Shown here: positions 5,567-53,731 of the stretch, one piece after another | Position numbering within the stretch: position 1 is the stretch's first letter | Layout: the number at the start of each line of letters is the position of its first letter | Source: an uncultured Candidatus Binatia bacterium | Lineage (GTDB): Bacteria; Desulfobacterota; Binatia; UBA9968; JAJDTQ01 | NCBI GenBank assembly: GCA_965242525.1 | Contig: OZ251459.1 | Coordinates: forward strand, 768,001 to 832,000 | Direction of reading: 5' to 3' | DNA: 64,000 nt | Notes under the pieces: generated by a model | Databases searched by the model: none | Seen by the model: the letters and a program-made list of their open reading frames with translations, nothing else | Told to the model about the DNA's origin: nothing | Program-made: the position numbers and the translations under genes

Positions 5567-5580
5567 CGGGCAAGGCTGAA

Positions 5581-5719
5581 GGAACCACTGAACAATCGGG
5601 ACAGGAAGCATGAGCGCGTCCTTCGACTTCGCTTCGCTACGCTCAGGACGAACGGAGGCAGGGGTCGGGGTGAGGGAATCGGGGATTCCTCCCGGATGTC
5701 TCGATTGTTCAGAGCTTCC
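5581..5719. mobile_element. MITE-like element, subfamily alpha, complete with 4-bp TSD
   Basis: Ends GGAACCACTGAACAATCGGGAC / GTCTCGATTGTTCAGAGCTTCC; TGAA on both sides (5577-5580, 5720-5723); core GCGTCCTTCGACTTCGCTTCGCTACGCTCAGGACGAACGG. Confidence 0.8.
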
Positions 5720-5769
5720 TGAAGTATATGCCGAGTTCGTCAGGCATCCATTCCCGGCGGAGGTGAACG

Positions 5770-5859
5770 ATGTTCACGTGTTCGGTTTGCGGCGCCGGAG
5801 ACAGCCGCGAAGAACTGGTGGAAGATGTGGCGCTTCCAGCTTTCGAGTGGGTAGAATAG
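5770..5859 (+). pseudogene. Internally deleted YgiT/MqsA-type zinc-finger antitoxin remnant
   Basis: RBS GGAGGT, then MFTCSVCGAGDSREELVEDVALPAFEWVE*; first CxxC present, second absent. Confidence 0.5.
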
Positions 5860-5889
5860 GAGGAGAAGGGGAGCGACAGGGGTCAGGCC

Positions 5890-5985
5890 GTCATTCCCGC
5901 GAAAGCGGGAATCCACTTTCCAACCGGTGCATAGTGATGCCGCCATGGGGTGGAATGGATGGATTCCCGCTTTCGCGGGAATGAC
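5890..5985. repeat. Inverted pair of dRS3-like palindromes
   Basis: GTCATTCCCGCGAAAGCGGGAATCCA (5890-5915) and its exact reverse complement (5960-5985). Confidence 0.85.
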
Positions 5986-6099
5986 GAGGTGGGGCGTCCG
6001 CGGCGCCAAACCGAGGACGGCGTAGTCGGAACGAGTGGGAATCGGACTTCATCACGTGGGAAGGGATGGTCACAACTCACACGAATTCCTGAAGAGCCA

Positions 6100-6208
6100 G
6101 GCACCCTGAACAACGCTCTCCGTTCGTCCTGAGCGTAGCGAAGCGAAGTCGAAGGACGGGCCTTCCCATGGGAAGAGGGATCTCAAGCCGGGTTGGACCG
6201 GACGTTCC
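6100..6208. mobile_element. MITE-like element, subfamily beta
   Basis: GGCACCCTGAACAAC ... reverse-oriented core ... GGACCGGACGTTCC. Confidence 0.7.
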
Positions 6209-6232
6209 TCGAGGTTTCGGGAGGGACGAACC

Positions 6233-6448
6233 ATGAAACTGCACTATTATCCGGACACGGACAGCGTGTACGTGGAGCTCAAGGCAGGGCCTGGCGCGGA
6301 GACCCGCGAAGTGAGTGAAGGACTCAACGTCGATCTTGACGCCAACGGGGACGTGGTGGGGTTTGACATCGACCGCGCCTCCAAGCGTCTCGACCTTGCC
6401 ACACTGGAAACGGAGGCGCTGCCCGTAAGGTCGTACAGGGCGGGCTGA
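6233..6448 (+). CDS. DUF2283-like small protein (putative antitoxin, orphan)
   Basis: MKLHYYPDTDSVYVEL...NVDLDANGDVVGFDI pattern; RBS GGAGG. Confidence 0.8.
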   Translation: MKLHYYPDTDSVYVELKAGPGAETREVSEGLNVDLDANGDVVGFDIDRASKRLDLATLETEALPVRSYRAG

Positions 6449-6489
6449 CGGGCCGCAGCCCGACGAAAACCGGGAGGACGAGCAGACTC

Positions 6490-9400
6490 ATGGCGCAAAG
6501 AACCAGGAAAGCCCGGCAGGTGGAGACCCTGACCCACGATCAGGCGTCCCGGAAGAACATCCCCACGGCCGAGTACCAGTCGATGATGGCCAAGGACGAC
6601 CAGGACCCCATCGAGGTCGCCTACCAGCGCCGCAACCGGGACCTCGACCCGCAACTCGTCTGGCGCGGGAAGGACGTGCAGGACTGGTCGGACCTAGTGG
6701 TGCAGGCGCCGCCGCTCTTCATCCAGGAGAAGGTCCACCCCAAGGCGCTCATCGACGACCTGCTGCGGCGCAGCCAGGCCGACAGGGAGGCGGGCAGCGA
6801 ACAGCCCGACCTCTTCGCCGATTTCAACGGTCTGCCCAACGACAACGCCAGGACGGAGTTCTACCGGCACGACGCCAACTGGTCCAACCGCATGATCCTG
6901 GGCGACAGCCTGCAAGTGATGGCGTCCCTGGCGGAACGGGAGGGGCTGCGCGGCAAGGTCCAGTGCATCTACATCGACCCGCCCTACGGCATCAAGTTCA
7001 ACTCCAACTTCCAGTGGTCCACCACCAGCCGGGACGTGAAGGACGGCAACGCCGCCCACATCACCCGGGAGCCGGAACAGGTGAAGGCGTTCCGGGACAC
7101 GTGGCGGGACGGGATCCACTCCTACCTGACGTACCTGCGGGACCGGCTGGTGGTGGCGCGGGACCTGTTGAGTTCATCTGGCGGCATTTTCGTTCAGATG
7201 AACTCGGAAAACTCACATTACCTCAGAAATCTACTGGACGAGATATTTGGAAATACCAATTTCATAGCCGATATTTCTTTTCGCAAGAAGAGCATACCGT
7301 TAGGCGCAACTTACCTCGAGACGATGAATGACAACATTTTATTTTACGCGAAAGACCGAGGAAATCTCAAGTTTCATCACCTTTACGAGCCAAACGACGT
7401 CTCTCAAGTCTCATCTCACGGGCCGTATGCCATGTTTCCTGATGGTAGCTGGGAGAGGATACAAACGACGGACTTCAAGAGTCCTGCGCATCCCGCTGGA
7501 ACAAGATACTATCGACTTTTCTCTTTGCTCGCTCCTTCCTACTCTCCGAACACAATATATCAATTTGACCATGAAGGTCGTCTCTTCGACCCGCCAAGTC
7601 ACGGTTCTTGGGTTGTCAATGAACATAAACTCCGCCTACTTTCTTCCATAGGAAGACTCCAATCAGAAGGGCGGAGTTTGAGCTATCGTTTGTACTATGA
7701 TGATTTTCCATTTCGGAAGAGGACGAATCAATGGAATGACTCGCCAGTATCATACAAGAAGAGCTACGTTGTACAAACGGCGGAAGAGGCTATTTCTCGC
7801 TGCGTCCTGATGACCACCGACCCCGGCGACCTCGTCCTCGACCCCACCTGCGGCTCCGGCACCACAGCCTACGTCGCCGAGCAGTGGGGCCGGCGCTGGA
7901 TCACCATCGACACCTCCCGCGTGGCCCTGGCGCTGGCCCGCGCCCGCGTCATGGGCGCGCGCTATCCCTACTACCTGCTGGCGGACAGTCCCGAAGGGCA
8001 GCGGAAGGAAGCCGAACTCGCCGGCAAGGCCCCGTCCGAAGCGCCTGCCCACGGCAACATCCGCCACGGCTTCGTCTATGAGCGGGTGCCGCACATCACC
8101 CTCAAGTCCATCGCCAACAACGCCGAGATCGACGTGATATGGGAGAGGCGCCAGCAGAAGCTGGAGCCCCTGCGCCGGAAGCTCAACGAGGCCATGAAGC
8201 AAGGTTGGGAGGAATGGGAGATCCCCCGCCACGCAGAAGACCCGTGGAGTCCCGCGGCGCAAGCGCTCTTTTCCAGGCTCCGGGTGGAACTCGAACAAGA
8301 GCGGCTTGATCCCTCGCACGCGCAGCAGCGCCCTCCCTCCACCATCAAGACCGGCGACGGGCCGAAGCGCGGCGCCCCGCAAGCGCAACGGCTTCTGCTC
8401 GACCTCAACGCGAACCTCAAGCGCGACTACACCCTCGACACGCTTCCGCCCCGTCCCGCGGACCCCTGGCCGGAGGCCCCGGCCGCCCTGCACGTGGAGT
8501 GGTGGGAGCAGCGCATCGCCCGGCAGCGGGAGATCGACGCCTCCATCGCCGCCAAGGCCGATTACGAGTACCTCTACGACAAGCCTTGCGAAGACCGGAA
8601 CGTCGTGCGCGTGGCCGGGCCGTTCACCGTCGATAGCCTGTCGCCGCACCGGGTGCTTGCGGTGGATGAAGACGACGAGTTGATCGACCGCGCCGCGGAG
8701 TCCCGCGCCGCCTACGGCGAAGCCGGCGATTTCGCCTCCATGATCCTGGAGCAACTGAAGATGGCCGGCGTGCAGCAGGCCCACAAGGACGACCGGATCG
8801 ACTTCAACGCCCTGGCGCCGTGGCCCGGGGAGCTGATCTGCGGCGAAGGGCGGTACGTGCAGGACGGGGAGGGCAGGGAGCAACGCGCCGGCGTCTTCGT
8901 CGGCCCCGAGTTCGGCACCGTCGCCAGACCCGACCTGGTGGCCGCGGCCCGGGAGGCCGCCGACGCCGGTTTCGACGTGCTCATTGCCTGCGCGTTCAAC
9001 TACGACGCCCATTCGTCGGAGTTCGACAAGCTCGGACGCATCCCGGTGCTCAAGGCCCGGATGAACGCCGACCTGCACATGGCGGAGGACCTGAAGAACA
9101 CCGGCAAGGGCAACCTCTTCGTCATCTTCGGCGAGCCGGACATCGACATCCTCCCGGCGGAAGGGGACGACGAAGGCCGTATCCGGGTCAGGATCAACGG
9201 CGTGGACGTGTTCCATCCCAACACCGGCGAGGTGCGGAGCGACGGCCCCGAGGGCATCGCCTGCTGGTTCATCGACACCGACTACGACGAGGAGAGCTTC
9301 TTCGTCCGCCACGCCTACTTCCTGGGCGCCAACGACCCCTACAAGGCCCTCAAGACCACGCTCAAGGCCGAGATCGACCCCGACGCCTGGGCCACGCTCC

Positions 9401-9504
9401 ACAGCGACCTGTCGCGCCCCTTCGACAAACCGGCCTCCGGCCGCATCGCGGTCAAGGTCATCAACCACCTGGGCGACGAGGTGATGAAGGTGTTCCGGGT
9501 GTGA
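6490..9504 (+). CDS. Type III-like Mod subunit, N6-adenine DNA methyltransferase
   Basis: IDPPY catalytic motif, DPTCGSGTT SAM-binding motif (beta order); AT-richer target-recognition region ~7170-7800. Confidence 0.92.
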   Translation: MAQRTRKARQVETLTHDQASRKNIPTAEYQSMMAKDDQDPIEVAYQRRNRDLDPQLVWRGKDVQDWSDLVVQAPPLFIQEKVHPKALIDDLLRRSQADREAGSEQPDLFADFNGLPNDNARTEFYRHDANWSNRMILGDSLQVMASLAEREGLRGKVQCIYIDPPYGIKFNSNFQWSTTSRDVKDGNAAHITREPEQVKAFRDTWRDGIHSYLTYLRDRLVVARDLLSSSGGIFVQMNSENSHYLRNLLDEIFGNTNFIADISFRKKSIPLGATYLETMNDNILFYAKDRGNLKFHHLYEPNDVSQVSSHGPYAMFPDGSWERIQTTDFKSPAHPAGTRYYRLFSLLAPSYSPNTIYQFDHEGRLFDPPSHGSWVVNEHKLRLLSSIGRLQSEGRSLSYRLYYDDFPFRKRTNQWNDSPVSYKKSYVVQTAEEAISRCVLMTTDPGDLVLDPTCGSGTTAYVAEQWGRRWITIDTSRVALALARARVMGARYPYYLLADSPEGQRKEAELAGKAPSEAPAHGNIRHGFVYERVPHITLKSIANNAEIDVIWERRQQKLEPLRRKLNEAMKQGWEEWEIPRHAEDPWSPAAQALFSRLRVELEQERLDPSHAQQRPPSTIKTGDGPKRGAPQAQRLLLDLNANLKRDYTLDTLPPRPADPWPEAPAALHVEWWEQRIARQREIDASIAAKADYEYLYDKPCEDRNVVRVAGPFTVDSLSPHRVLAVDEDDELIDRAAESRAAYGEAGDFASMILEQLKMAGVQQAHKDDRIDFNALAPWPGELICGEGRYVQDGEGREQRAGVFVGPEFGTVARPDLVAAAREAADAGFDVLIACAFNYDAHSSEFDKLGRIPVLKARMNADLHMAEDLKNTGKGNLFVIFGEPDIDILPAEGDDEGRIRVRINGVDVFHPNTGEVRSDGPEGIACWFIDTDYDEESFFVRHAYFLGANDPYKALKTTLKAEIDPDAWATLHSDLSRPFDKPASGRIAVKVINHLGDEVMKVFRV

Positions 9505-9505
9505 T

Positions 9506-10459
9506 ATGGTGAACCCCATGAGTTTCCCAATGGATGAAGTACAGGCGGCATTCTACGGATTGCAATTTCATATCGCTTTTCTTGAGAAGAAAGGCGCCGA
9601 GTTTCAGGATTGGTTCGTAAAAATTGCCACCAGTGCGTATGGACCGGACTTCGAGGCGGTTCGTCCTTACGGCCGTCAAGGTGACCTCAAATGCGACGGT
9701 CGCCGGATCAGCACGAAAACCATATTTCAATGCTATGCTCCCTATCAGACGCGCGAAGCGCAATTGAACGCTAAAATCGAAAAGGACTTTCGCGGGGCAC
9801 ATGAGCACTGGGGTCGTGACATGTTGGAATGGGTCCTGGTGTACAACGACAATCATGGACTGCCACCGTCATCCAGTCAACTTCTCGATCGACTGCGGAA
9901 TGGTTACCCTGATGTCGGGATTGCGGTCTGGTTCGAAGCGTCACTCCGAGAACTCGCCAATGGCCTCTCGTTGGTTCATCAGCAGGCCATCTTCGGTTTC
10001 GCTCCGTCGAAAACAGGAATGGAGACGCTGATGCTGGAGGATATCCAACCTGTCATCGACCAGCTCGCCCGAGTCGATCCTGAACCTGGGCAGGAACCGC
10101 TGATGCCGCCATCACTGGAAAAACTACAGAAGAACTCGCTCTCGGACGATGCCGCTAGTCTGCTTCGAGTGGGACGTCGCAAGGAAGCGCTGGTCGACGC
10201 GTGGTTCAGAAAAAATCCCAGGGCCGATCTCGGAGAACGCATCGCGGAGGCGTTTCGCCATCGTTATGCGCGTTTGAAAGAAGAAGACCGGTCGCCGGAC
10301 GAAATCTTCGCACACCTTCAAGAATATGCTGGCTCCGGCCGGGAACCCGGGCGGGTGGCGGCGTCGCTGGCCGTTCTGTCCTATTTCTTCGACCGTTGCG
10401 ACATTTTCGAGGATCCGGAGGTTGGAGATGATCCTGCCGACCAAACACATTCGGCTTGA
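9506..10459 (+). CDS. ABC three-component (Lamassu LmuA-like) effector: N-terminal restriction-endonuclease-like domain + C-terminal domain
   Basis: FQDWF...GRQGDLKCDG...FQCYAP nuclease-like N-terminus; C-terminal YFFDRCDIFE; first of three overlapping genes. Confidence 0.75.
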   Translation: MVNPMSFPMDEVQAAFYGLQFHIAFLEKKGAEFQDWFVKIATSAYGPDFEAVRPYGRQGDLKCDGRRISTKTIFQCYAPYQTREAQLNAKIEKDFRGAHEHWGRDMLEWVLVYNDNHGLPPSSSQLLDRLRNGYPDVGIAVWFEASLRELANGLSLVHQQAIFGFAPSKTGMETLMLEDIQPVIDQLARVDPEPGQEPLMPPSLEKLQKNSLSDDAASLLRVGRRKEALVDAWFRKNPRADLGERIAEAFRHRYARLKEEDRSPDEIFAHLQEYAGSGREPGRVAASLAVLSYFFDRCDIFEDPEVGDDPADQTHSA

Positions 10460-10673
10460 TCGCGCCTTGATCGGTGAGGGTGCCAGTGTGCTCAGCGTCC
10501 TTGAACGACCGATGACGATTTCGAGACTTTGGGACGAGATCAGATCGCGCCGTTCCGTGGAGACTTCCGGACCGGTAATCGACTATCGGTGGTTTGTGCT
10601 TGCTCTTGATTTTCTCTACATGATAGGCGCCATCGAGTTCGAGCGTGGGCTGATCCGCAAGGCGAATCCATGA
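10428..10673 (+). CDS. ABC-3C middle component (LmuC-like)
   Basis: MILPTKHIRLDRALIG...FVLALDFLYMIGAI, 81 aa; overlaps both neighbours. Confidence 0.75.
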   Translation: MILPTKHIRLDRALIGEGASVLSVLERPMTISRLWDEIRSRRSVETSGPVIDYRWFVLALDFLYMIGAIEFERGLIRKANP

Positions 10674-12463
10674 TTCGGCGGCTGAGCAGCGACCTTGCGT
10701 CCTTCAAGACGCTGGAATTCGGTCCCGGACTCAACGTTGTTCTTGCCGACAAGAGTCAAGGGGCCACGGACAGGCAGTCGCGCAACGGTGCGGGCAAGAC
10801 CAGTTTCGTGGAGCTGGTTCATTTTCTGTTCGGCGCGGACGCCAGACCTTCCGGTATTTTTCGATCGGAAGCCTTGCGGGACTGGACGTTCAGCGCATCC
10901 GTCGACATAGAGGGACGAAACTGTTCGATCTCTCGTAGCGGCCAGAAACCGAGTCGTATAAGTGTCACCGGTGGCATTGATGATTGGCCGGCTGCGTCAG
11001 AGAACGAAAAGCGACTGTTTGACGAAAGACGCCTCGCTCCGATGCTTCCGAAGCAGCAGGAGTTTTCCAATGAGCAGTGGAAAAGCATCCTTGGAATTCT
11101 CTGGTTCGGACTGTCGCGTGACGGCGATGACGCGGAATCGTTTCGGCCGACTTTTCGCTCCCTGTTTTCCTTCGTTGCCAGGCGCCAAGAAGGCGGAGGA
11201 TTTCAATTTCCGATGCAGCATTCGACGATGCAGCAGATATGGGACAGGCAGGTCGTCATCTCGTACTTGATTGGATTGGACTGGATGATTCCGAGCCGCT
11301 TTCAGAAGTTGCGCGACGAAGAAAGGGTTGCAAGGGAACTTCGCAGGGCCGTCGAGTCCGATCAACTGAGACGTTACGTCGGCAATGCGGCGGAATTGCG
11401 CACCAGACTTGCGGTCGCTGAAGACCGGGCGGATCGACTACGCGAAAGGATCGAAGGCTTCCACGTCGTACCGGAATACAAGGAACTGGAAGTGGAAGCC
11501 ACTGAGATTACCATGAGGATCAATGATCTGAACGTCGAGAACGTCGTCGATCAGGATCTGATTCGTGAACTGCGCGCGTCACTGGACACGGAAGATCCGC
11601 CGGATGCGCAAAACCTGGTCACCCTGTACGACGAGGCCGGTATCGTGTTGCCGGATCTGCCTCGCCGTCGGATCGATGAAGTCGAGCGGTTTCATCGGAC
11701 GGTCCTGGAAAACCGACGTTCCCACCTTGGATCCGAGATCGAGAGCGCGGAGCATCGAGTTTCCGAACGGGATCGGCAAAAAAATCGCTTGGATGAACGG
11801 CGCGGGCAGATCATGGGGCTTTTGAGATCGGGAGGAGCGCTGGATCATTACACCAGTCTGCGCGAAGAGTTGGGGAGACACGAAGCGGATGTCGAAATGT
11901 TGAGGCAGAGGCTCGATACTGCCGAACGCCTTGCCAACACCAGGACGGAGATGGACATGGAGCGTACGCGTCTGCTGAAGGCGCTTCGGGACGACATCCA
12001 TGAGCGTGAGGGCATTGTGCGCGAAGTCATCCTGAACTTCGAGGAGCTGTCGCAATCACTTTACGAGCGTGCGGGAAGCCTGACCATCTCCGATACGCCG
12101 AACGGGCCGAAGTTCAATGTTCATATCGCAGCCGAACGCAGCAAGGGAATTACGAACATGCAGATTTTCTGCTTCGATCTGATGCTGACGGAGATCGGCG
12201 TTCGGCGCGGGCGATGGCCGGGGTTTCTTATCCACGACAGTCATCTTTTCGACGGAGTTGATGAGCGGCAGGTGGCCAAAGCCCTTCAGATCGGTGCAGA
12301 GCGGGCTGATGCCAATGGCTTTCAGTACATCGTTACCATGAATTCCGATTCTGTGCCGACGGAGGGATTCACGAACGGATTCGATCTTCAGAACTACGTC
12401 AACGAAACCAGACTGACAGACGCGACAGAGACAGGCGGGTTGTTTGGCTTCAGGTTCGATTGA
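10670..12463 (+). CDS. ABC/SMC-like ATPase, DUF2326-type (LmuB-like)
   Basis: Walker A NGAGKTS, long coiled coil, SKG signature, FLIHDSHLFDGVDERQ Walker B/D-loop. Confidence 0.85.
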   Translation: MIRRLSSDLASFKTLEFGPGLNVVLADKSQGATDRQSRNGAGKTSFVELVHFLFGADARPSGIFRSEALRDWTFSASVDIEGRNCSISRSGQKPSRISVTGGIDDWPAASENEKRLFDERRLAPMLPKQQEFSNEQWKSILGILWFGLSRDGDDAESFRPTFRSLFSFVARRQEGGGFQFPMQHSTMQQIWDRQVVISYLIGLDWMIPSRFQKLRDEERVARELRRAVESDQLRRYVGNAAELRTRLAVAEDRADRLRERIEGFHVVPEYKELEVEATEITMRINDLNVENVVDQDLIRELRASLDTEDPPDAQNLVTLYDEAGIVLPDLPRRRIDEVERFHRTVLENRRSHLGSEIESAEHRVSERDRQKNRLDERRGQIMGLLRSGGALDHYTSLREELGRHEADVEMLRQRLDTAERLANTRTEMDMERTRLLKALRDDIHEREGIVREVILNFEELSQSLYERAGSLTISDTPNGPKFNVHIAAERSKGITNMQIFCFDLMLTEIGVRRGRWPGFLIHDSHLFDGVDERQVAKALQIGAERADANGFQYIVTMNSDSVPTEGFTNGFDLQNYVNETRLTDATETGGLFGFRFD

Positions 12464-12695
12464 AATAGTCGTCGCTGCCGCCGCGAGGCTCTCCCTTCCC
12501 GCCAGGGCATAGCCCACCTTGCCTTCGGCGTCGGCGAACGGAGTTTCGTGATTCCTTTGGAGACTCTGGCGGTGTGTGAGAAAGGTAGGCCGTGCGAGCA
12601 GGGCGAAGGGAAGGAACAGGGCAAAGCCGTTGGCGAGGGCGAGGCAGTCCACCAGCGGCCAGGGGACGGGCTGGTAGCGCAGTAGATGGAACTCG

Positions 12696-14315: not shown

Positions 14316-15323
14316 ATGAAGCTCGACATCGAGTTCAATTCGGGCGCCCAGCTTCCCATGCACGCGGTCCCCGAGCTCGCGGCGGCCGCGGAGGACAACG
14401 GGTTCGAAGGCGTCTGGGGCGGGGAGGCCAACAACAAGGATCCCACGGTCATGCTGGCGGCCGCGGCCGCGGTGACCCGGCGGCTCCGGCTCGGGACCGC
14501 GGTCTTCCACATGCTGGGCCGAACCCCCGTAAGCATGGCCCTCCACGCAGCCGGCCTCGACGAGTTGTCCCGCGGGCGTTTCCTGCTGGGGCTCGGCATC
14601 TCGAACCCCACCATAGCGGACTGGCACGGCGCGGCCTTCGACCGTCCGTTGGGGCGCATCCGGGAGTACCTGGAGGTGGTGAGGGCCGCCCTCCGGGGCG
14701 AGAAGCTCGATTTCCGGGGCGCGTTCTACCGCGCCCGCGGCTTCAAACTCGCCTTCGAGCCGTCCGGTCGGAGCATCCCCGTGTACCTCGCGGCCTTCGG
14801 ACCGCAGATGAGCCGACTGGCCGGCCGGTCGAGCGACGGCGTGCTCATCAACATGGCGGACCCGAAAGAGGTCCGCAGGATCGCCGACAACGCCCGGGAG
14901 GGGGCAAGGACGGCGGGCAAGGACCCGGACGGGCTGGAGGTCATCTGCAAGGTGCGCTGCTGCGTGGCCCGGGACCGGGATGCGGCGCGGCAGGCCCTGG
15001 GGCGTATCCTGACCTACTACGCCTTGGCGGACTATTACCGCGACCTGCTCGCACGCATGGGGTTCGGCGAGGAGGTGGCGGCCATCCGCCAAGCTTGGCG
15101 CGCGTCGGGCTTCCACGCCGCGGCCGCGCAGGTCACCGACCGGCTGTTCGACGGCCTGCCCGTGGTGGCCGCGGAATCCGTGGACGAAGTCATGGCCAGG
15201 GTGCAAGCCTACCAGGAGGCCGGCGCCACCCGCGTGATCCTTCCGTACGTGCCGTGCACCGACGACGCGGTGGGGGAGCTCCGCGAGTTCATCCTGGCGT
15301 GCGGCCGAAGACGGGGGACATGA
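14316..15323 (+). CDS. LLM-class flavin/F420-dependent oxidoreductase
   Basis: GFEGVWGGE, LDELSRGRFLLGLG, IPVYLAAFGP; stop codon lies at the start of the downstream repeat. Confidence 0.88.
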   Translation: MKLDIEFNSGAQLPMHAVPELAAAAEDNGFEGVWGGEANNKDPTVMLAAAAAVTRRLRLGTAVFHMLGRTPVSMALHAAGLDELSRGRFLLGLGISNPTIADWHGAAFDRPLGRIREYLEVVRAALRGEKLDFRGAFYRARGFKLAFEPSGRSIPVYLAAFGPQMSRLAGRSSDGVLINMADPKEVRRIADNAREGARTAGKDPDGLEVICKVRCCVARDRDAARQALGRILTYYALADYYRDLLARMGFGEEVAAIRQAWRASGFHAAAAQVTDRLFDGLPVVAAESVDEVMARVQAYQEAGATRVILPYVPCTDDAVGELREFILACGRRRGT

Positions 15324-15424
15324 GCGCGTCCTTCGACTCCGCTTCGCTACGCTCAGGACGAACGGGGATAGGAGTGTCAAGTTGAGGGAATCCACCCTGG
15401 AAATCTCGATTGTTCAGGGGTCCC
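15319..15424. mobile_element. MITE-like element alpha, left end missing
   Basis: CATGAGCGCG + core + TCTCGATTGTTCAGGGGTCCC. Confidence 0.7.
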
Positions 15425-15861: not shown

Positions 15862-15945
15862 GGAGCCTCTGGACGATCGGGGGAGCATGAGCGCGTCCTT
15901 CGACTTCGCTCCGCTACGCTCAGGACGAACGGGGATAGGAGGGTC
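15862..15945. mobile_element. MITE-like element alpha, right end missing
   Basis: GGAGCCTCTGGACGATCGGG + CATGAGCGCG + core. Confidence 0.65.
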
Positions 15946-15984
15946 AGGGGGGAGGGACAGGGTGGGGGGCGGTGTCGAGGCGGT

Positions 15985-16464
15985 TCAGGTCAGTTCGGCC
16001 TGGGGGTCGGCCTTGGCCAACAGGTCCAGCAGGGTCTGCTTGTGGCGGCCTTCCACCTCCACGAGCTGACGGAGCAGCCGGCTGTAGTCCGGCGCTTCCA
16101 GGGCCAGGTAGGCCATGTCGTCGAGGAGCTTGGCCTCCACCCGCTTCTGGTCCTCCACGTCCTGGCGGAGGCGCTCCCAGTGGTTCTTTCCGGACGGGAT
16201 GCTCGAATCGAACTTGGCCACCCGCGCGCCCAGGTGCTCGATGCCCTTGAACAGCAGCGCGATGTTCTTTTCCTTCTCCGCGGCCATCTGCCTCAGCCGC
16301 TCGACCACGAAGGGATAGGGGGCCTTTTCCGCGTGCAGCTTGAGCTGGTTGGCGAGCTTGGCGAGGTCCCGGTAGTCGTCGGCGAGCACGGTGCGTATGG
16401 TGCGCTCTTCCCGCCGCTCCCGGCCGCGTTGGAACCAGCCCGTGATGGTCTCCGTCAGCGCCAC
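15985..16464 (-). CDS. Helical protein, possibly ferritin-like fold
   Basis: Four-helix pattern with EKEKN and VEVEGRH (ExxH); GTG start directly behind a consensus promoter. Confidence 0.6.
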   Translation of the reverse strand: MALTETITGWFQRGRERREERTIRTVLADDYRDLAKLANQLKLHAEKAPYPFVVERLRQMAAEKEKNIALLFKGIEHLGARVAKFDSSIPSGKNHWERLRQDVEDQKRVEAKLLDDMAYLALEAPDYSRLLRQLVEVEGRHKQTLLDLLAKADPQAELT

Positions 16465-17468: not shown

Positions 17469-17831
17469 GGAAATTCCGATCCATTCCGGCTTGAACTCCC
17501 TCTCCCTGTGGGAAAATGCGTCCTTCGACTTCGCTTCGCTACGCTCAGGACGAACGGGAGTAATGGTTCGGAGTTTTCCCGAGGAAACCCTGATCCATCG
17601 AGTCATGGATCGGGTATTCCCTCCCGTGGTCTTCCCGCCGACCAGGCAGGGGATTGGCTGTATCCTGATCGAAGCCGATGGTCATGGTTCGGGGGTTTCC
17701 CTCACGTGGCCTTCCTGCCCCTGTTCGTTTTGAGCGTAGCGAAGTGAAGTTTACCTCCGTTCGTCCTGAGCGTAGCGAAGCGGAGTCGAAGGACGCGCTC
17801 ATGCTCTCTGTCCCGATTATTCAGGGGTTCC
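17469..17831. mobile_element. Two abutting MITE-like elements (beta 17469-17579; alpha 17583-17831 with an extra partial core)
   Basis: Cores at ~17518-17557 (+), ~17723-17749 (partial, -) and ~17757-17800 (-); GGAA/TTCC ends. Confidence 0.75.
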
Positions 17832-18770: not shown

Positions 18771-19760
18771 TCAACCACCGGAGGGCCGCCTCCTCGCGGC
18801 GATCCACGCGAATACCGGCGCTCCCAGCAGGGCCGCCACCACCCCGAGCTTGAGCTCGACGTCCGTGGGCGCCGCGCGCACGCCCATGTCCGCTGCCACC
18901 AGCATGAACCCGGCGAGCAGCGCCGACGGCGCCAGGGTCCGGGCCGGGTCGTGGCCCACCAGAGGGCGCACCAAGTGGGGGGCCACGATGCCGACGAAGC
19001 CGATGGCCCCGGCGATGGACACCGCGGCGCCGGTGGCCAAGCCCGCGCCCACCACCACCCGCCGCCGGGCCCGGCCGAGGTCCAGGCCCGCTCCCGCGGC
19101 CGCCTCCTCGCCCAGGGTCAGGGCGGCGAGGCCGCGCCGCTCGGCCAAAAGGACACCGAGGCCCGCCAGCAGGAAGGGCGCCGCGGGCGCGAGGTCGTGG
19201 AAACTGCGGTTGGCCACCGTGCCGAGCATCCAGTTCAGCATGTCCGACAGGGAAAAGGGGTGCGGCGCCAAGTTCATCAGCAACGCCATCAAGGCGCCGG
19301 CGAAGCTCGACAGCCCGACCCCCAACAGGATGAGCGTCACCACCGAGTCCACGCGCATGGCCGCCGCGGTCAGGAGGACGGTGGCCGCCAGGGCGCCGGC
19401 GATGGCGGCCAGGGGCAGGGCCAGGGCGCCGGCGTTGGCGAGGCCGTAGTAGATGACGAAGGTGGCGCCCAGGGCCGCGGTGGCGGACACGCCCAGGACT
19501 CCGGGCTCGGCCAGGGGGTTGCGCAGCAGCCCTTGCAGGGCGGCGCCCGACGCTCCCAGGGCCGCGCCCACCGCCAGCGCCGCCACCGCCCGCGGCAGGC
19601 GGATCTCCCACACCACCACGCGGTCCCCCGAGGACCCCCCGCCTAGGAGCGCCGCCAGCGCCCGCTCCACGCCCAGGTGGAAGGACCCCACCAGGCAGGA
19701 GGCGGCCAGAGCCGCGGCGACCGCGGCCGCAAGCACGATGGCGAGGCTCCGGTCGGTCAC
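18771..19760 (-). CDS. FecCD/BtuC family permease
   Basis: IRLPRA, LQGLLRNPLAEPGVLG, GAIGFVGIVAPH. Confidence 0.92.
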   Translation of the reverse strand: MTDRSLAIVLAAAVAAALAASCLVGSFHLGVERALAALLGGGSSGDRVVVWEIRLPRAVAALAVGAALGASGAALQGLLRNPLAEPGVLGVSATAALGATFVIYYGLANAGALALPLAAIAGALAATVLLTAAAMRVDSVVTLILLGVGLSSFAGALMALLMNLAPHPFSLSDMLNWMLGTVANRSFHDLAPAAPFLLAGLGVLLAERRGLAALTLGEEAAAGAGLDLGRARRRVVVGAGLATGAAVSIAGAIGFVGIVAPHLVRPLVGHDPARTLAPSALLAGFMLVAADMGVRAAPTDVELKLGVVAALLGAPVFAWIAARRRPSGG

Positions 19761-19825
19761 GGTTCCGCCCGGGTCGAGAGTGCGCGGTGGAGCGCCAAGT
19801 GGTTCCTATCTCGAATCGAGGACAA

Positions 19826-19955
19826 GGAAACCCTGAACGATGGAACCGTGGATGAGCGGTCTTCCCTCATGTGGCCTTCCTGTCCCCGTTCGTCCTGAGC
19901 GTAGCGGAGCGAAGTCGAAGGACGCGCTCTTCCTCCGGAATTGTTCAGGCTTTCC
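19826..19955. mobile_element. MITE-like element alpha inside the transporter operon
   Basis: GGAAACCCTGAACGAT ... reverse core ... ATTGTTCAGGCTTTCC. Confidence 0.75.
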
Positions 19956-19964
19956 ATGAAACGG

Positions 19965-20885
19965 TCACGGTCCTGTCCGGGTCGGGGGCGCGCGGCGGAG
20001 GGCCGCGAGCGCCTCTACCGCGTCGGCCAGGAACCACCCGCCGCAGGAAGTGGTGGCGCCGTCGAGGGCCGCGGCCGGAAGCGAGCGCAAGGCCCGCTGG
20101 GCCACGGGATGCCGGAACGGGGTCCACGCGTCCTCGTGGTCGTGGGCTTCGCCGAACGAGGCCACAGCCACGAGGTCCGGGCTCTCGTAGGCCAGGCGTT
20201 CGAGGGGGATGGGCCGCCATCCCGGCCGCGGCTGGAAGTTTTCGAGTCCCGCGGCCGCGAACAGGTGGTGCACGAGAGTGCCCGGTCCGGCCGTGAAGCC
20301 CGCCGGCGTCACGTAGAGCGCCCGCGTCTCCGGGTCATGGACCCGGGCCCGTTCCAACCGCGCGTCCATCTCCGCCACCAGCGCCTCGCCCCGTTCCGGC
20401 GCGCCGAGCCCCCGCGCGGCGTCCCGGACCACCGCCCGGGCGTCGTCGAGGTCGTCCACCAGACCGATTTGCAGCACCGGCACCCCCGCCCGCTCGAAGA
20501 ACGCCCGCGCCCGGGGACCTCCGCCATACGAGCGAACCACGAGGTCCGGCTCCAGCATCAGCACGTCCTCCGCCCGGGGCCGCACCGTGCGCAACCCCTC
20601 CGCGGCCGCCCGCATGTAGGAGAAGGCCGCGCCCGCGTCCGGCGACACCGCCAGTATGCGCCCGCGCTCCGCCAGCCCCAGCACGAACTGGTCGGCGCAG
20701 TAGTCCAGGCTCACGATCCTTCGGGCCGCCCCGGAGGGCTTGACCGGCCGCGGCTCGCATGCGGCGGCGAAGAGGCAGGCGGCGAGCGCGAGCATGGCCG
20801 CCTTGGCGCCTTGGCCGGTCTTGGCGCCGGGGCCGGTCCCGCGGCGCGCCGGTGTCCGATGGGTGGGTGAGTGGGGCATTTCCAA
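19965..20885 (-). CDS. Periplasmic binding protein (BtuF-like, cobalamin/Fe-chelate)
   Basis: RIVSLDYCADQ, AEDVLMLEPDLVV; lipobox-like AAAC; start uncertain. Confidence 0.85.
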   Translation of the reverse strand: MEMPHSPTHRTPARRGTGPGAKTGQGAKAAMLALAACLFAAACEPRPVKPSGAARRIVSLDYCADQFVLGLAERGRILAVSPDAGAAFSYMRAAAEGLRTVRPRAEDVLMLEPDLVVRSYGGGPRARAFFERAGVPVLQIGLVDDLDDARAVVRDAARGLGAPERGEALVAEMDARLERARVHDPETRALYVTPAGFTAGPGTLVHHLFAAAGLENFQPRPGWRPIPLERLAYESPDLVAVASFGEAHDHEDAWTPFRHPVAQRALRSLPAAALDGATTSCGGWFLADAVEALAALRRAPPTRTGP

Positions 20886-20958: not shown

Positions 20959-21191
20959 GGAACGTCTGATCGATTCCGGCTTGGACTCCATCGCCCTGCG
21001 GGAAAGCGCGTCCTTCGACTTCGCTTCGCTACGCTCAGGACGAACGGAGGACTCCGCTACGCTCAGGATGAACGGAGGACTCTGCTACGCTACGCTTCTT
21101 TCGACTTCGCTACGCGTCCTTCGACTCCGCTACGCTACGCTCAGGACGAACGGGGATTCAGGACGAACGGGGATAATTGTTCGGAGTTTCC
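20959..21191. mobile_element. MITE-like element beta with internally amplified core and 4-bp TSD
   Basis: TTGA|GGAACGTCTGATCGATTCCGGC ... TTGTTCGGAGTTTCC|TTGA; several reshuffled core fragments. Confidence 0.8.
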
Positions 21192-28805: not shown

Positions 28806-28875
28806 GGAACGTTCGATCGATTCCGGCTGGAATTCCCTCTCCCTGTGGGGAAGCGCGTCCTTCGACTTTGCTTGT
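28806..28875. mobile_element. Truncated MITE-like element beta
   Basis: GGAACGTTCGATCGATTCCGGC ... GCGTCCTTCGACTT, then breaks off. Confidence 0.6.
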
Positions 28876-33829: not shown

Positions 33830-33962
33830 GGAACCTCTGAACGATCGAGACGGAGGCAAGAGCCCGTCCTTCGACTCCGCTTCGCTACGCTCAGGACGAA
33901 CGGGGACAGGACGGTCAGAGTGAGGGAATCCATCCCGGATTTCCCGATCGTTCAGATGTTCC
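33830..33962. mobile_element. MITE-like element alpha, both ends present
   Basis: GGAACCTCTGAACGATCGAGA / TCCCGATCGTTCAGATGTTCC around the core; no clean TSD. Confidence 0.78.
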
Positions 33963-36939: not shown

Positions 36940-37140
36940 GAAACCCTGAACGATCGGGACAAGAGGGCATGAGCGCGTCCTTCGACTCCGCTTCGCTACG
37001 CTCAGGACGAACGGGGATAGGACGCTTCACTACGCCCGGGACGAACGGGGATAGGACGCTTCACTACGCCCGGGACGAATGGGGACGGGAGGGTCAGGGG
37101 AAGGGAACCCATCCTCGATGTCTCGATGGTCAGGCGTTCC
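36940..37140. mobile_element. MITE-like element alpha with internal 34-bp tandem duplication
   Basis: GAAACCCTGAACGATCGGGAC ... core ... (GGACGAACGGGGATAGGACGCTTCACTACGCCCG)x2 at 37005-37072 ... GTCTCGATGGTCAGGCGTTCC. Confidence 0.75.
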
Positions 37141-37153
37141 GGAAATATCCAGC

Positions 37154-37240
37154 GCCGGGATGGTGGAACAGGTAGACACGCGGGACTTAAAATCCCGCGG
37201 GCGCAAGCCCGTGCCGGTTCAAGTCCGGCTCCCGGCACCA
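37154..37240 (+). tRNA. tRNA-Leu(TAA)
   Basis: Acceptor GCCGGGA/TCCCGGC+ACCA, anticodon arm CGGGA-CT-TAA-AA-TCCCG, long variable arm, GGTTCAAGTCC T-arm. Confidence 0.97.
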
Positions 37241-37366: not shown

Positions 37367-37464
37367 GGAAACCCCGGACAACCACCCCGTTCGTCCTGAG
37401 CGTAGCGAAGCGAAGTCGAAGGACGCGCTTTCCCGAGGGAGACCCGGCATCGATCGAACGTCCC
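37367..37464. mobile_element. MITE-like element beta with 4-bp TSD; additional orphan end at 37294
   Basis: CGAA|GGAAACCCCGGACAAC ... reverse core ... GATCGAACGTCCC|CGAA. Confidence 0.75.
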
Positions 37465-44351: not shown

Positions 44352-44477
44352 GGAAACTCGGAACAACGCCCCTCCCCCCGTTCGTCCTGAGCGTAGCGAA
44401 GCGAAGTCGAAGGACGCGCTTTTCCATAGGGAGAGGGAACGGGGAGGGAACTCAAGCCGGAATGGACCAGGAGTTCC
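44352..44477. mobile_element. MITE-like element beta
   Basis: ACAA|GGAAACTCGGAACAAC ... reverse core ... GGACCAGGAGTTCC|ATAA (flanks 3/4 identical). Confidence 0.72.
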
Positions 44478-49371: not shown

Positions 49372-49593
49372 TTACGGACCGGTCGGTTTGCCCTGTTTCT
49401 GCTGTTCCTTCTCCCACTGCTCAGCCGCTTGGGGGGTGGTACGATAGCCAACTTGCTTGATGTGTCCCTTCTCCCAGCCTTTCTTGCTCCGATGTTCCGC
49501 TTCGCGGCGATCAATGTCGTTGGTGATGCCCGCTTGGACAATCTTGTTGCCCAACTTGAAGTAATACTTGTACATGATCCTGTCGGTCGCCAT
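49372..49593 (-). CDS. Minimal GIY-YIG-like protein (73 aa)
   Basis: YKY...VQAGITNDIDRREAEH...AEQWE; RBS AAGGAGGT. Confidence 0.6.
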   Translation of the reverse strand: MATDRIMYKYYFKLGNKIVQAGITNDIDRREAEHRSKKGWEKGHIKQVGYRTTPQAAEQWEKEQQKQGKPTGP

Positions 49594-49604
49594 GCGACAC
49601 CTCC

Positions 49605-50081: not shown

Positions 50082-50091
50082 GGTGGTCCCT

Positions 50092-51669
50092 CTATCGTTG
50101 GCCGCCGAATCCGAGACGCTCCAGGTTCTCGGCGATGGCGGCGTCGAGCCGCGCGCCTTCGGGCTGCTGGGTGCGCAGGTCAACGGCCAGCCGCTTCATC
50201 TTTTCCTCGAACGGTTCGCCGTCGTCCTGCTGCGCTTCCGCGTCCACGTAGCGGCCCGGGGTGAGCACGTGGCCGTACCTGCGGACGTCCTCCAGGGAAG
50301 CGCTTTTGCAGAAGCCGGGGACGTCGGCGTAAGGGGGGATGTCGGCAGCCCCGCTGCGCCAGGCGTGGTAGGTGGCGGCGATGTGGGTGATGTCGTCGTC
50401 CGTCAGTTCCCGGTGGGTGCTATCGACCATGCGGCCGAGCTTGCGGGCGTCGATGAACAGGATTTCGCCCCGGCGGTCGCGGAACCGGCCGTTGCCGCGG
50501 TCCCGGGCCAGGAACCACAGGCAGGCAGGGATCTGGGTCGAGTAGAAGAGTTGGCCGGGTAGGTCGATCACGCAGTCCACCAAGTCGGCTTCGACCAGGT
50601 TCTTGCGGATCTCGCCTCCGCCGGGCTGTCCGGCCGACAGGGATCCCTTGGCGAGCACGAAGCCGGCCGTGCCCGCGGGCGCCAAGTGGTGGACCATGTG
50701 TTGCATCCAGGCGAAGTTGGCGTTGCCTATGGGAGGCGCGCCGTAACGCCAGCGCTTGTCGTCGGTGAGGCGCTCGCCGCCCCATTCCGAGACGTTGAAG
50801 GGCGGGTTGGCGAGGATGAAGTCGGCCTTGAGGTCGGGGTGGCGGTCGTCGTGGAAGCTGTCGCCGTGGGCGATCTGTCCCTCGATGCCGCGGATGGCGA
50901 GGTTCATCTTGGCTAGCCGCCAAGTCGTATAGTTGGACTCCTGGCCGTAGATGGAGATGTCGCTGTGTGTGCGGCCCCCGTTGCCGTTGCCGCTGGCGTG
51001 GGCGCGGATGAACTCCACCGACTGCACGAACATGCCGGACGAGCCGCAGCACGGGTCATAGACCCGGCCCCGGTAGGGCTCCAGCATCTCCACCAGCAGC
51101 TTGACCACGCAGCGCGGTGTGTAGAACTCGCCGGCCCTCTTGCCTTCGGCGCTGGCGAACTGGGACAGGAAATACTCGTACACGCGCCCGAGCACGTCCC
51201 TGGACCGGGCCTCCTGGTCGCCCACCCGGATGTTGCTGATGAGGTCGATCAACTGGCCGAGCCGCTGCTTGTCGAGGGCGGGCCGGGCGTAGTCCTTGGG
51301 CAGCACGTCCTTGAGAGCGGGATTGTCGCGCTCGATGCCGCTCATGGCCCGGTCCACGAGCTGGCCGACCGCGGCCTGCCGGGCCTGCGCCTTGAGTCGG
51401 GTCCAGCGCGCCTCGGGCGGCACCCAGAATATGTTCTCGGCGCGGTACTCGTCCGGGTCCTCCGGGTCGGCGCCCCCTGCCTTTTCGCCCACCAGGCGCG
51501 CGTGCATCTCCTCGAAGGCGTCGGAGATGTATTTCAGGAAGACCAGGCCGAGGACCACGTGCTTGTATTCCGCGGCGTCCATGTTGCCGCGCAAGGTGTC
51601 GGCCATGAGCCACAGCTCGGCCTCGTAGCCGGTGGTGGCGCCCTGGGTCGTGGTGTGCGTTTCCGCCAT
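50092..51669 (-). CDS. hsdM: Type I RM methyltransferase subunit M
   Basis: [19 protein letters not shown]. Confidence 0.95.
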
Positions 51670-51759
51670 GGACAGTCCTTTCGCGTTCCGGGCCTTGCGG
51701 CAGCGGAGAAGAGGCTTCGAGTCGTCGGGCCTGCTCGCCGCATAGGGCAGGTGCTTCGT

Positions 51760-51787
51760 AATATAGACTACGGGAGACTCTGTTCAA
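51760..51787 (-). promoter_or_regulatory. Candidate hsdM promoter
   Basis: TTGAAC-16nt-TATATT. Confidence 0.45.
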
Positions 51788-51789
51788 GG

Positions 51790-52032
51790 GCGCGTCCTTC
51801 GACTTCGCTTCGCTACGCTCAGGACGAACGGGGATGGACTCCCGCACGTCGCGCTGGCGCGTCGCGCCGAATGGGGATGGATTCCCGCTTTCGCGGGAAT
51901 GACGGAGTGGGCTTTTGCGGGAATGAGGGGGAATGACGGCGTGGGGTCTTGCGGGAATAAGAGGGTGGACCTCCGCCCTTGCTGGTGCGGATTGCCCTTG
52001 CTGGTGCGGATTGAGCGTGCCGGTGCGGATTG
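51790..52032. repeat. Repeat cluster: lone MITE core (51790-51832), dRS3-like palindrome (51878-51903) with degenerate partial copies, 19-bp tandem x3 (51976-52032)
   Basis: Direct reading; tandem unit CCCTTGCTGGTGCGGATTG. Confidence 0.75.
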
Positions 52033-52170
52033 GGCGCGCATTGAAAACCTTCGGTGGATCGGATAGTTTCCGTGGCGTTCCGTCCACTAGGAGTCGGAGA
52101 GCGTTCGTGGTGAAGCTGACGTGGTGGAACAACGCCGTCGTTCCGTCCATGATGAGTCGGGGAGCGTTCT

Positions 52171-53379
52171 GTGGAGAAGCCGAAGGTCGTTCTGGGGGTC
52201 GCCGGGGGAATCGCCTGCTACAAGGCGCTGGAGGTCGTGAGGCTCCTGGTGCAGGAGCCTTGCTCCGTCCGGGTGGTGATGACCAGGGCGGCTGCGGAGT
52301 TCGTCACGCCCCTGAGCTTCCAGACCCTTTCGGGGGAGCCCGTGGCCACCGACCTCTTCAGCCTGACCCAGGAGTCCGAGATCGGCCACATCCACCTGGC
52401 GGACAGCGCCGACCTGCTGGTGGTGGCGCCGGCCACCGCCAACGTGGTGGCCAAGCTCGCCGCGGGCATTGCCGACGACGTCCTCACCACCGTGGCGCTG
52501 GCCACCCGGGCGCCCTTGCTGGTGGCGCCCTCCATGAACGTGCACATGCTGGCCCATCCCATGGTGCAGGCGAACCTGGAGAAGCTCCGGAGCGTCGGCT
52601 GCCACGTCATGGAGGCCGGGGCCGGCTACTTGGCGTGCGGCTACGAAGGCAAGGGCCGTCTCCCGGAGCCCGCGGCCATCGTCGAGGAGGTGCGCCGGCT
52701 GCTCCGGCCCGGGGACCTGGCCGGCGAGCGGGTCGTGGTCACCGCGGGCCCCAGCCGGGAGCCGTTGGACCCGGTGCGCTTCTTCTCCAACCGCTCCTCG
52801 GGGAAGATGGGTTACGCCCTGGCGCGGGCGGCCGCCCGGCGCGGCGCCCAGGTGGCGCTGGTGAGCGGCCCCACGGCGCTGGCGCCTCCCGCGGGCGTCC
52901 GCACGGTGCCGGTGGTGACGGCCGACGAGATGCGCGAGGCGGTGCTGGCGGAGTTCGACGCGGCCACCGCGGTCTTCATGGCCGCGGCGGTGGCGGACTA
53001 TCGTCCGCGTTCCGCGTCGAAGCACAAGATGAAGCGGGGCGGCGAAGCCATCCGCGTGGAGTTCGTCCCCAACCCCGACATCCTGGCGGAACTGGGAGCG
53101 CGGAAACGGGGCCAAGTGGTGGTGGGGTTCGCCGCGGAGACCGAGGCGCTGGTGGAGAACGCCCGCTCGAAGCTCCACCGGAAGAACCTCGACCTGCTGG
53201 TGGCCAACGACGTCACCCGGGAAGACAGCGGCTTCGACGTGGACACCAACGCGGTGACGCTGCTGGACCGGGACGGGACCGCGACCCCCTTGCCTCTCAT
53301 GAGCAAGGACGCCCTGGCCGACCGGCTCTGCGACTGGTTCGTCGAGTACCGGGGCGACGCCCGGCGCCGCGAGGCCTGA
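52171..53379 (+). CDS. coaBC: Phosphopantothenoylcysteine decarboxylase/ligase
   Basis: GGIACYKA, APATAN, PSMN, LACG..GKGRL, SNRSSGKMG, GFAAET. Confidence 0.95.
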   Translation: MEKPKVVLGVAGGIACYKALEVVRLLVQEPCSVRVVMTRAAAEFVTPLSFQTLSGEPVATDLFSLTQESEIGHIHLADSADLLVVAPATANVVAKLAAGIADDVLTTVALATRAPLLVAPSMNVHMLAHPMVQANLEKLRSVGCHVMEAGAGYLACGYEGKGRLPEPAAIVEEVRRLLRPGDLAGERVVVTAGPSREPLDPVRFFSNRSSGKMGYALARAAARRGAQVALVSGPTALAPPAGVRTVPVVTADEMREAVLAEFDAATAVFMAAAVADYRPRSASKHKMKRGGEAIRVEFVPNPDILAELGARKRGQVVVGFAAETEALVENARSKLHRKNLDLLVANDVTREDSGFDVDTNAVTLLDRDGTATPLPLMSKDALADRLCDWFVEYRGDARRREA

Positions 53380-53564
53380 CGCGGCCGCGGTCCTGGCGCC
53401 CTGACGAGGCGCGGCGTCCGGGATGCGGGCAGGATGCCCGCGCTCCCAGGGAACCCTGGGTCCCTGGCGAGGCGCGGCAGTCCGCAAGGGGTCGTGGCAG
53501 CGCCAGGGGCGGGTGCTTCCGTGCTCTTGGCCAGACGTTGCCATGCCGCCGGTATTGTCGTAAA

Positions 53565-53673
53565 GGAAACTCTGGGCAACGATCCTCCGTTCGTCCTGAG
53601 CGTAGCGAAGCGAAGTCGAAGGACGCGCTTTCCCGGGGGAGAGGGACTCGAGGCGGAATGGACCGGACGTTCC
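53565..53673. mobile_element. MITE-like element beta
   Basis: TAAA|GGAAACTCTGGGCAAC ... reverse core ... GGACCGGACGTTCC|TGAA. Confidence 0.72.
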
Positions 53674-53731
53674 TGAACGAGGATCATCGGAACGGGGATC
53701 ATCGGAATCGAAGTTCGATGGCGTTACCGGC

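Follow-up and report, generated by a model that had tools for sequence, protein, structure and literature searches.

Miniature IS5-type elements in a Candidatus Binatia genome likely carry one arm of a hairpin repeat associated with a GIY-YIG nuclease gene

The stretch of DNA analysed here, referred to below as the window, comprises 64,000 nucleotides (G000:C1:768001-832000) of a Candidatus Binatia genome (G000; assembly of 4.23 Mb, 67% G+C, 98.96% complete). Dispersed along it are miniature transposable elements with inverted repeats (MITEs) that share a 40-nt core motif. It is argued below that these elements were moved by an IS5-family transposase and that the core is likely a passenger, namely one arm of a hairpin repeat associated with a gene for a small GIY-YIG nuclease. 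A search of the window with the 40-nt core, allowing up to 3 mismatches, returned 15 matches (listed in Table 1), compared to 0.00 expected from 100 dinucleotide-preserving shuffles. The original prediction of about 15 core-sharing elements was thus borne out, with two small corrections: the element at 28806 contains a partial core, and the one at 20959 contains two full cores and a partial one. No transposase is encoded within the window, as had been noted.

The motif is not confined to this region. The genome as a whole contains 587 core matches at up to 4 mismatches, 250 of them exact and all on the main contig, and a profile search with nhmmer (E ≤0.01) yielded 868 hits grouped into 599 loci. 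With 15 cores per 64 kb, the window exceeds the mean density of the genome by a factor of only about 1.6. In order to relate the cores to neighbouring genes, 2946 genes (82% coding) were called by a crude procedure based on G+C content at third codon positions (GC3). Judged by these calls, 104 cores were co-oriented and 119 anti-oriented with respect to the adjacent genes, and no orientation bias was seen along the chromosome in 200-kb bins either, which argues against a strand-specific role at the RNA level. The 134 core loci located inside predicted open reading frames (ORFs) probably reflect over-long ORF calls. At the gathering threshold, Rfam contained no family for the core, the sole match being to a tRNA.

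Most copies of the core sit within IS5-family MITEs bounded by common GGAACCTCTGAAC-type inverted ends. Alignment of the flanks recovered both of the predicted subfamilies. The alpha form, of ∼139 bp, has a 22-bp left terminal inverted repeat (TIR) beginning GGAACCTCTGAACAATCG; 13 nt separate it from the core, and ∼38 nt lie between the core and the inverted TIR. The beta form, of ∼110 bp, has a related left end and a 27-nt C-rich arm in front of the core, behind which a few bases lead to a right TIR of the alpha type. When the 599 loci were sorted with hidden Markov models of the element arms, both alpha arms were found at 142 loci and a single alpha arm at 84, the beta left arm at 159, both left arms at one, and cores on both strands at 34. 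A beta left arm followed by the core and an alpha right arm was scored at 11 loci, about nine of which were judged to be clean intermediates, longer than the main forms. No arm profile matched at the remaining 168 loci; a TIR-like 18-mer is present on one or both sides at 60 of these and is lacking at 108. A third context, gamma, is represented by eight arms, each with a core. All 133 alpha elements having two called ends contain the core, and tandem arrays of partial cores are frequent (233 direct adjacencies). A core-less element made of MITE arms was found as one copy only, a beta left arm joined to an alpha right arm; other candidates for a core-less chassis were nearly all reverse-strand artefacts. 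The view that the core resides in two different chassis was overstated: alpha and beta share the type of TIR, and given the intermediates between them, one capture with later rearrangement inside the element is the simpler account. The core is found, in addition, in the gamma context and at the TIR-less loci.

The IS5 family typically has GGAA...GAAC-type ends and produces target duplications of 4 bp. Target-site duplications (TSDs) were counted genome-wide on unique elements, detections in both orientations, which arise from the symmetry of the TIRs, having been merged. Identical 4-mers flank 55 of the 133 alpha elements (mean of 1.75 and maximum of 8 in shuffled pairings), with a further 37 matching at three of four positions, and 38 of 114 beta elements (shuffle mean 1.56, maximum 7). 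The signal is register-specific, since shifting the right flank by 1–2 nt left 0–4 matches for alpha. The duplicated 4-mers are AT-rich and often preceded by C and followed by G. Within the window, the three exact duplications reported earlier (TGAA, TTGA and CGAA) are all real, and flanks matching at three of four positions were found as ACAA/ATAA.

Evidence of mobility was provided by a sister species (G036) with DNA identity to G000 of 85–96% over syntenic blocks. Three window sites were inspected closely and all three are empty in G036: the segment 5553–6209, the beta element at 17469–17579 and the alpha-like element at 19826–19955. Over 47 kb of synteny, about 10 core loci are specific to G000, about four to five are shared and two are specific to G036; at four of the G000-specific loci G036 carries other sequence of 177–412 nt rather than a clean empty site. 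These differences between occupied and empty sites indicate that the elements moved after the two species had split, despite the lack of an intact transposase in G000 at present.

The likely source of the mobility is still discernible. G000 contains a single partial match to DDE_Tnp_1, located in an 866-bp remnant (C1:2465162-2466027) that codes for the initial 160 aa of a transposase of IS5 type (DUF772), ends on the right in ATTGTTCAGAGGTTCC as does the alpha MITE, and has CAAA on both sides; further matches to this insertion sequence (IS) are limited to two shorter fragments. The surrounding region (G000:C1:2464191-2467319) is of low G+C content with AT-rich ORFs and is probably a foreign island. 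In G036, the IS is present as a 1230-bp element with an open frame covering DUF772 and the full DDE_Tnp_1 domain; of its four copies, two share 99.7% identity, another is 95.8% identical and the last is incomplete, and a TTGA duplication flanks one copy. The first 16–17 nt of the alpha and beta ends are those of the right end of this IS and of the G000 remnant. A search for IS5 elements with matching TIRs thus found an intact one in G036 and a decayed one in G000. The 22-nt TIR (up to 3 mismatches) was sought in a sample of 28 genomes of the genus, comprising G000 and 27 other species that are not independent of each other: it occurs 293 times in G000, 19 times in G036, once in G005 and in none of the other 25. 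Matching TIRs, 4-bp TSDs and recent mobility all agree with the initial assignment of the elements to IS5-like MITEs. It follows that an IS5-family DDE transposase moved the alpha and beta elements by recognition of their ends and with 4-bp duplication.

The core, by contrast, is not part of the IS: it was not detected in the full-length G036 element by nhmmer at E values up to 10. It is, however, abundant in species that do not have the MITE TIR. The 23-nt 3′ part of the core is present in 0–588 copies in the 27 other species and in 0–757 copies across the genus. Outside G000 and G036 it occurs mostly in inverted doublets (23 among 94 scanned loci), in which a core and a reverse core are separated by a looser spacer of 14–17 nt. 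The doublets have neither IS5-type ends nor a visible target duplication, and their palindrome runs a few bases into the flanks. Such short-spacer doublets are absent from G000, where no pair of plus and minus cores with a gap of less than 80 nt was found.

The core can be related to a wider family of hairpins with the loop TCGACANGCTC. In 34 instances of the canonical form, positions of the 10-bp stem were paired in 79.1% of cases compared to 65.7% in shuffles, and the covariation score of the stem was 0.358 versus 0.134 in shuffles, with none of 500 shuffles reaching the observed value and slid controls attaining at most 0.157. The three stem pairs beside the closing T-A pair alternate cleanly between C-G, G-C and U-A. 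In the Binatia core, CGTCCT pairing with AGGACG represents the six inner pairs of the canonical stem; the loop is longer by ∼11 nt and the stem has no outer 5′ half. For these two reasons a single core folds like shuffled sequence and pairs fully only as a doublet. Exact 35-nt matches to the core were also encountered on two contigs whose labels are Dyella sp. and Acidimicrobiia, respectively, reflecting either mis-binning or rare transfer.

In order to identify GIY-YIG genes that might be associated with the core, as had been suggested, we searched the genus with PF01541 and found two classes of small genes encoding proteins of ∼100 aa. Class 1 is present in seven of the 28 genomes (G000, G036, G032, G012, G003, G009 and G010), and this comparison proved decisive: in 7/7 loci a core is positioned 14–51 nt upstream of the class-1 start, on the opposite strand, and in four of the seven cores are also found just downstream of the gene. 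The G000 copy (C1:3870133-3870372) is interrupted by two in-frame TAG stops and no longer has its 3′ end, while that of G036 (L143) is open and encodes 99 aa; both the transposase and the nuclease gene have decayed in G000. Core counts in genomes with the class-1 gene are 757, 588, 494, 279, 191, 143 and 15, and in genomes lacking it they reach at most 135 (median 14). The five most core-rich genomes all carry the gene (one-sided Mann-Whitney p 0.0005, for genomes that as kin are not independent). The core thus belongs to a repeat family that is linked to a GIY-YIG gene.

The best structurally solved relative of the class-1 protein is UPF0213 protein BH0048 (1zg2, E 3.9e-17). With the Ssn-like class 2 of the same genus it shares 32% identity, and judging by sequence it probably represents a different branch from Ssn; NCBIfam has no family for either class. 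The class-2 genes are accompanied by other hairpins, of the form ATTCCCGC-N4-GCGGGAAT, found within ∼1.5 kb at six of eight class-2-like loci. These adjoin the gene at three loci (L149, L151 and L168, the last being the G000 copy at G000:C1:3303736-3303954), of which L149 and L168 alone have them on each side.

The association of class 1 with its hairpin extends beyond the genus. In other families of the phylum, four of the five nearest class-1 homologues are flanked by inverted, shorter hairpins with the loop TCGACANGCTC. We also examined 80 metagenomic loci encoding homologues with 59–69% identity, in 77 of which the gene could be located. Within 700 nt, the generic motif was found near the gene in 61 of the 77 loci, and on both sides in 24, the reversed-motif control giving 0/77. 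The arrangement is directional: upstream copies were on the minus strand in 52 of 64 cases and downstream copies on the plus strand in 26 of 33. Control loci near the motif were 0/15 for UvrC and 0/8 for Y1 transposase genes. Among remoter UPF0213 homologues in the phylum (up to 44% identity) the motif was seen at three of 24 loci, all of them single matches.

The core is also the best-conserved segment of the alpha element. In 69 copies picked by their arms alone, the core agrees with the consensus at an identity of 0.972, the two TIRs at 0.915 and 0.940, and the inner arms at 0.884 and 0.832. A core better conserved than the ends had been predicted, and uniform decay after insertion cannot produce such a pattern. 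Selection on the core, as originally proposed, is compatible with these data, but the excess of conservation over the rest of the element is moderate. The core may be needed by proliferating lineages, or it may be homogenised, for example by nick-induced repair.

How did a hairpin arm become associated with hundreds of transposon-like elements? The possibility that the core is native to the IS5 element or to the MITE, for instance as an internal binding site for the transposase or a host factor needed for transposition, would account for its presence in each of the 133 two-ended alpha elements and for its identity exceeding that of the TIRs, as if proliferating lineages required it. Such an origin is nevertheless improbable, given that nhmmer at E values up to 10 detected no core in the full-length G036 element, that up to 25 other species without the MITE TIR have the core in abundance, and that in G000 itself it also occurs in the gamma context and at the 108 loci without TIRs. 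Alternatively, the host might retain the core for a function of its own, either as an RNA hairpin in untranslated regions (a terminator or stabiliser) or as a site for a nucleoid or repair protein, the link to the GIY-YIG gene being incidental. The strong conservation of the core between species and the mainly intergenic position of the elements fit this proposal, and host roles of this kind have reportedly been put forward for Escherichia coli repetitive extragenic palindromic (REP) sequences in a 2026 preprint. We consider it unlikely, however: the cores show no preference for gene orientation (according to the crude gene calls), the core has no Rfam family and taken alone shows no excess folding energy, a range of 0–757 copies within one genus fits selfish spread better than housekeeping, and the linkage between gene and motif is both strong and directional.

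The original prediction described the core as REP-like, that is, of the type spread by REP-associated tyrosine transposases (RAYTs), which are HUH enzymes of the Y1 class; the core would then have been caught in MITEs only later. It is true that the cores of the relatives form inverted doublets without target duplications, resembling REPINs (REP doublets forming hairpins), and that a Y1_Tnp gene is present in 24 of the 27 other species. On the other hand, PF01797 had no match in G000 or G036, the two most core-rich genomes, and at Y1 loci of the relatives neither the core 20-mer (up to 4 mismatches) nor the generic motif was found within ∼1.5 kb (0/8); together with the unbiased orientation of the core along the chromosome, this leaves an origin by RAYT activity highly improbable. 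As to the Y1_Tnp gene itself, an open frame of ∼340 aa, it is missing from G002 and G005 in addition to G000 and G036, and in relatives (L008–L015) it is not flanked by the core.

The explanation that we find likely is that of a DDE-mobilised MITE whose passenger core is an arm of the hairpin repeat associated with the GIY-YIG nuclease. An IS5-group DDE transposase acting in trans would recognise the GGAACCTCTGAAC-type ends and make a 4-bp staggered cut at AT-rich targets. The 40-nt arm would have entered the MITE once, with internal rearrangements following, and MITE transposition would then have amplified the captured core to ∼600 loci in the lineage of G000 and its sister species. In other members of the genus this repeat takes the form of TIR-less inverted doublets and is found around the UPF0213-like GIY-YIG gene. 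By analogy with Ssn, the GIY-YIG protein may recognise the hairpin in single-stranded DNA, either by binding or by cutting it, and such an interaction, or a need for the core in proliferation, might account for the core being more uniform than other parts of the element.

Several observations weigh against this explanation. The tie between nuclease and core is a genomic one. The class-1 gene is dead in G000, which makes a present-day interaction of nuclease and core unlikely there, and gene and repeat do not always go together, as G007 and G008 contain 134–135 cores without a detectable class-1 gene and G010 possesses the gene yet only 15 cores. A single core, in which the 10-bp stem of the canonical form lacks its 5′ half, is a weak palindrome with a 6-bp stem and has a folding energy like that of shuffles (z 0.16 and −0.34). 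Covariation, which supported the wider hairpin family, is weak for the 6-bp stem within the genus, where most changes are G-T wobbles and few are compensatory. Just two of the four examined IS copies have a perfect 4-bp duplication. Finally, the sole core-less element could be a deletion product, so that the direction of capture is not provable.

It is tempting to go one step further, although we do so tentatively and regard what follows as possible rather than probable. The core might be the working recognition and cleavage site of an undescribed, UPF0213-type (Slx1-like) branch of single-stranded DNA nucleases, sister to the Ssn/NTS system and present in many environments. Lodging in a MITE would have freed the spread of the repeat from the nuclease and resulted in ∼600 copies; nuclease-triggered repair, or a requirement in proliferation, would explain why the core exceeds even the transposase-binding ends in uniformity; and the nuclease gene may have been lost from G000, the genome richest in cores, as a cost of its hundreds of self-cleavage sites.

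The individual elements of the window are compiled in Table 1; the ends of several of them were placed by eye.

Table 1. Core-bearing elements in the 64-kb window (positions are those of the window; G036 is the sister species).
Element	Position	Strand	Core	Ends, flanks and comparison with G036
Alpha MITE, 139 bp	5581..5719	+	5616-5655	22-bp TIRs; TSD TGAA on both sides; site empty in G036
Beta MITE	6100..6208	-	6120-6159	Ends by eye; within 657-bp stretch (5553-6209) absent from G036
Alpha MITE, left TIR not recognisable	15319..15424	+	15326-15365	Right TIR 15407-15424
Alpha MITE	15862..15996	+	15893-15932	Left TIR 15862-15879; right end degenerate, by eye
Beta MITE, 111 bp	17469..17579	+	17518-17557	Absent at orthologous site in G036
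Alpha MITE	17583..17831	-	17757-17796 (full); 17723-17750 (extra, partial)	Contains inserted sequence; orthologous place in G036 has core
Alpha-like MITE	19826..19955	-	19886-19925	Absent in G036; ∼45 bp of target duplicated on each side
Beta MITE, 233 bp	20959..21191	+	Full from 21008 and 21114; partial at 21052	TSD TTGA
Truncated beta MITE	28806..28870	+	About first 17 nt only	Left arm plus start of core (genome 796806-796854); orthologous place in G036 has full cores
Alpha MITE, 133 bp	33830..33962	+	33864-33903	Within 2.8-kb stretch absent from G036
Alpha MITE	36940..37145	+	36975-37014 (full), then tandem partial cores	Right end approximate, just before tRNA
Short beta-like MITE	37367..37464	-	37387-37426	TSD CGAA
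Beta MITE, 126 bp	44352..44477	-	44378-44417	Flanks ACAA/ATAA (3/4 match); core common to G036
Core without recognisable TIR pair	51792..51831	+	51792-51831	Weak TIR-like 18-mer 51773-51790; NTS/SRM-type hairpins follow; core common to G036
Beta MITE	53565..53677	-	53587-53626	Ends by eye

Some further features of the window deserve mention. A 38-bp mini-palindrome at 17584–17622, present in both G000 and G036, consists of abutting left and right IS5-type TIRs alone and may be an extreme deletion derivative. At 19740–20020, a stretch of ∼45 bp at the 3′ end of a gene is single in G036 and is represented in G000 by two diverged copies flanking the MITE, a duplication that far exceeds the 4 bp generated by the transposase. 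The tRNA gene at 37154–37237 is closely bracketed by an alpha MITE (36940 to ∼37145) and a beta-like MITE (37367–37464). A segment of 10.3 kb (2386–12694) lies elsewhere and inverted in G036 (∼G036:C1:2462470-2468802), where the flanks, 1–2385 and 12695 onward, are adjacent; it represents either a rearrangement or an island. The MITEs are interleaved with other repeats as well: NTS/SRM-type hairpins ATTCCCGC-N4-GCGGGAAT, of which G000 has 227 copies, are found at 5890–5990 and ∼51870–51960, and a motif ...CTTCAGGAATTCGTGTG...GTTGTGAC... (∼6040–6100, and other genome loci) recurs beside MITEs and forms an unclassified dispersed repeat family.

Two strategies of selfish DNA come together in these elements, one represented by the cut-and-paste ends of a DDE transposon and the other by a hairpin with ties to a GIY-YIG nuclease gene, and the two genomes constitute a dated natural experiment, with transposase and nuclease both intact in G036 and both dead in G000, which has the most copies. 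What is new here is that the core of the MITEs is linked explicitly to the class-1 nuclease gene, along with the decay of that gene in G000, the presence of an intact IS and an intact nuclease in G036, and the quantitative tests. The data also add to the evidence for the Ssn principle reaching a second, probably distinct branch that is UPF0213-like and whose motif is another one and very widespread. Members of this branch are mostly annotated as hypothetical proteins, and its hairpins may give rise to spurious ORFs in many genomes. If the nuclease indeed cuts the hairpin in single-stranded DNA, new sequence-specific tools acting on such DNA might be obtained, as has been proposed for Ssn. A literature search at the level of result summaries revealed no published description of the hairpin, of its link to the UPF0213-like gene or of a MITE carrying the core.

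Among known systems, the MITEs resemble other IS5 MITEs, including BrickBuilt of Porphyromonas gingivalis as described in PMC4596501, in being short and gene-less, with inverted ends, and in depending on a transposase supplied in trans. Like BrickBuilt, they contain in many copies an internal tandem array, the units being partial cores in the present case. According to the same description BrickBuilt has 19 copies, compared to ∼600 loci here; moreover, the module of the Binatia elements is not IS-derived but is a hairpin-repeat arm that exists independently of the MITE across the genus.

REP/REPIN-RAYT systems, and likewise bacterial interspersed mosaic elements (BIMEs) and neisserial intergenic mosaic elements (NIMEs), also comprise short inverted doublets with a more variable spacer and no target duplication, an organisation that the core repeat shows in relatives though not in G000, form intergenic mosaics with other repeats and have one dedicated gene. 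In the present case, however, the linked gene is that of a GIY-YIG nuclease and not of an HUH Y1 enzyme. The CGTC-tagged REPs described by Di Nocera et al. (2013, PMC3733652) match the dRS3/NTS type rather than the core.

The closest parallel is offered by the Ssn nucleases and their NTS/SRM hairpin repeats (Chenal et al., Nat Commun 2025, PMC11893778). As presented in the main text of that paper, a stand-alone GIY-YIG gene for a protein of ∼95–100 aa is situated between inverted hairpin repeats, the repeat is also dispersed elsewhere in the genome, numbering from tens to hundreds, species differ strongly in how many copies they have, and the gene is usually, but not always, found in repeat-rich genomes; all of this applies to the Binatia repeat. 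The same main text contains no mention of UPF0213, YhbQ, cd10456 or MITE. The differences lie in the protein, which is UPF0213 BH0048-like and diverges from Ssn-like class 2 to the extent given above, in the motif loop, which is TCGACANGCTC rather than ATTCCCGC-N4-GCGGGAAT, and in the takeover of one repeat arm by a DDE MITE; cleavage would apply here by analogy. Both the core and the canonical form are unlike the NTS/SRM consensus (CGTCATTCCCGCG...GCGGGAAT), having a different stem as well as a different loop. The MITE part is ordinary and of a known kind, and in pairing a small GIY-YIG gene with a dispersed hairpin that belongs to it the system follows the published Ssn principle, with a probably different protein branch and a different motif.

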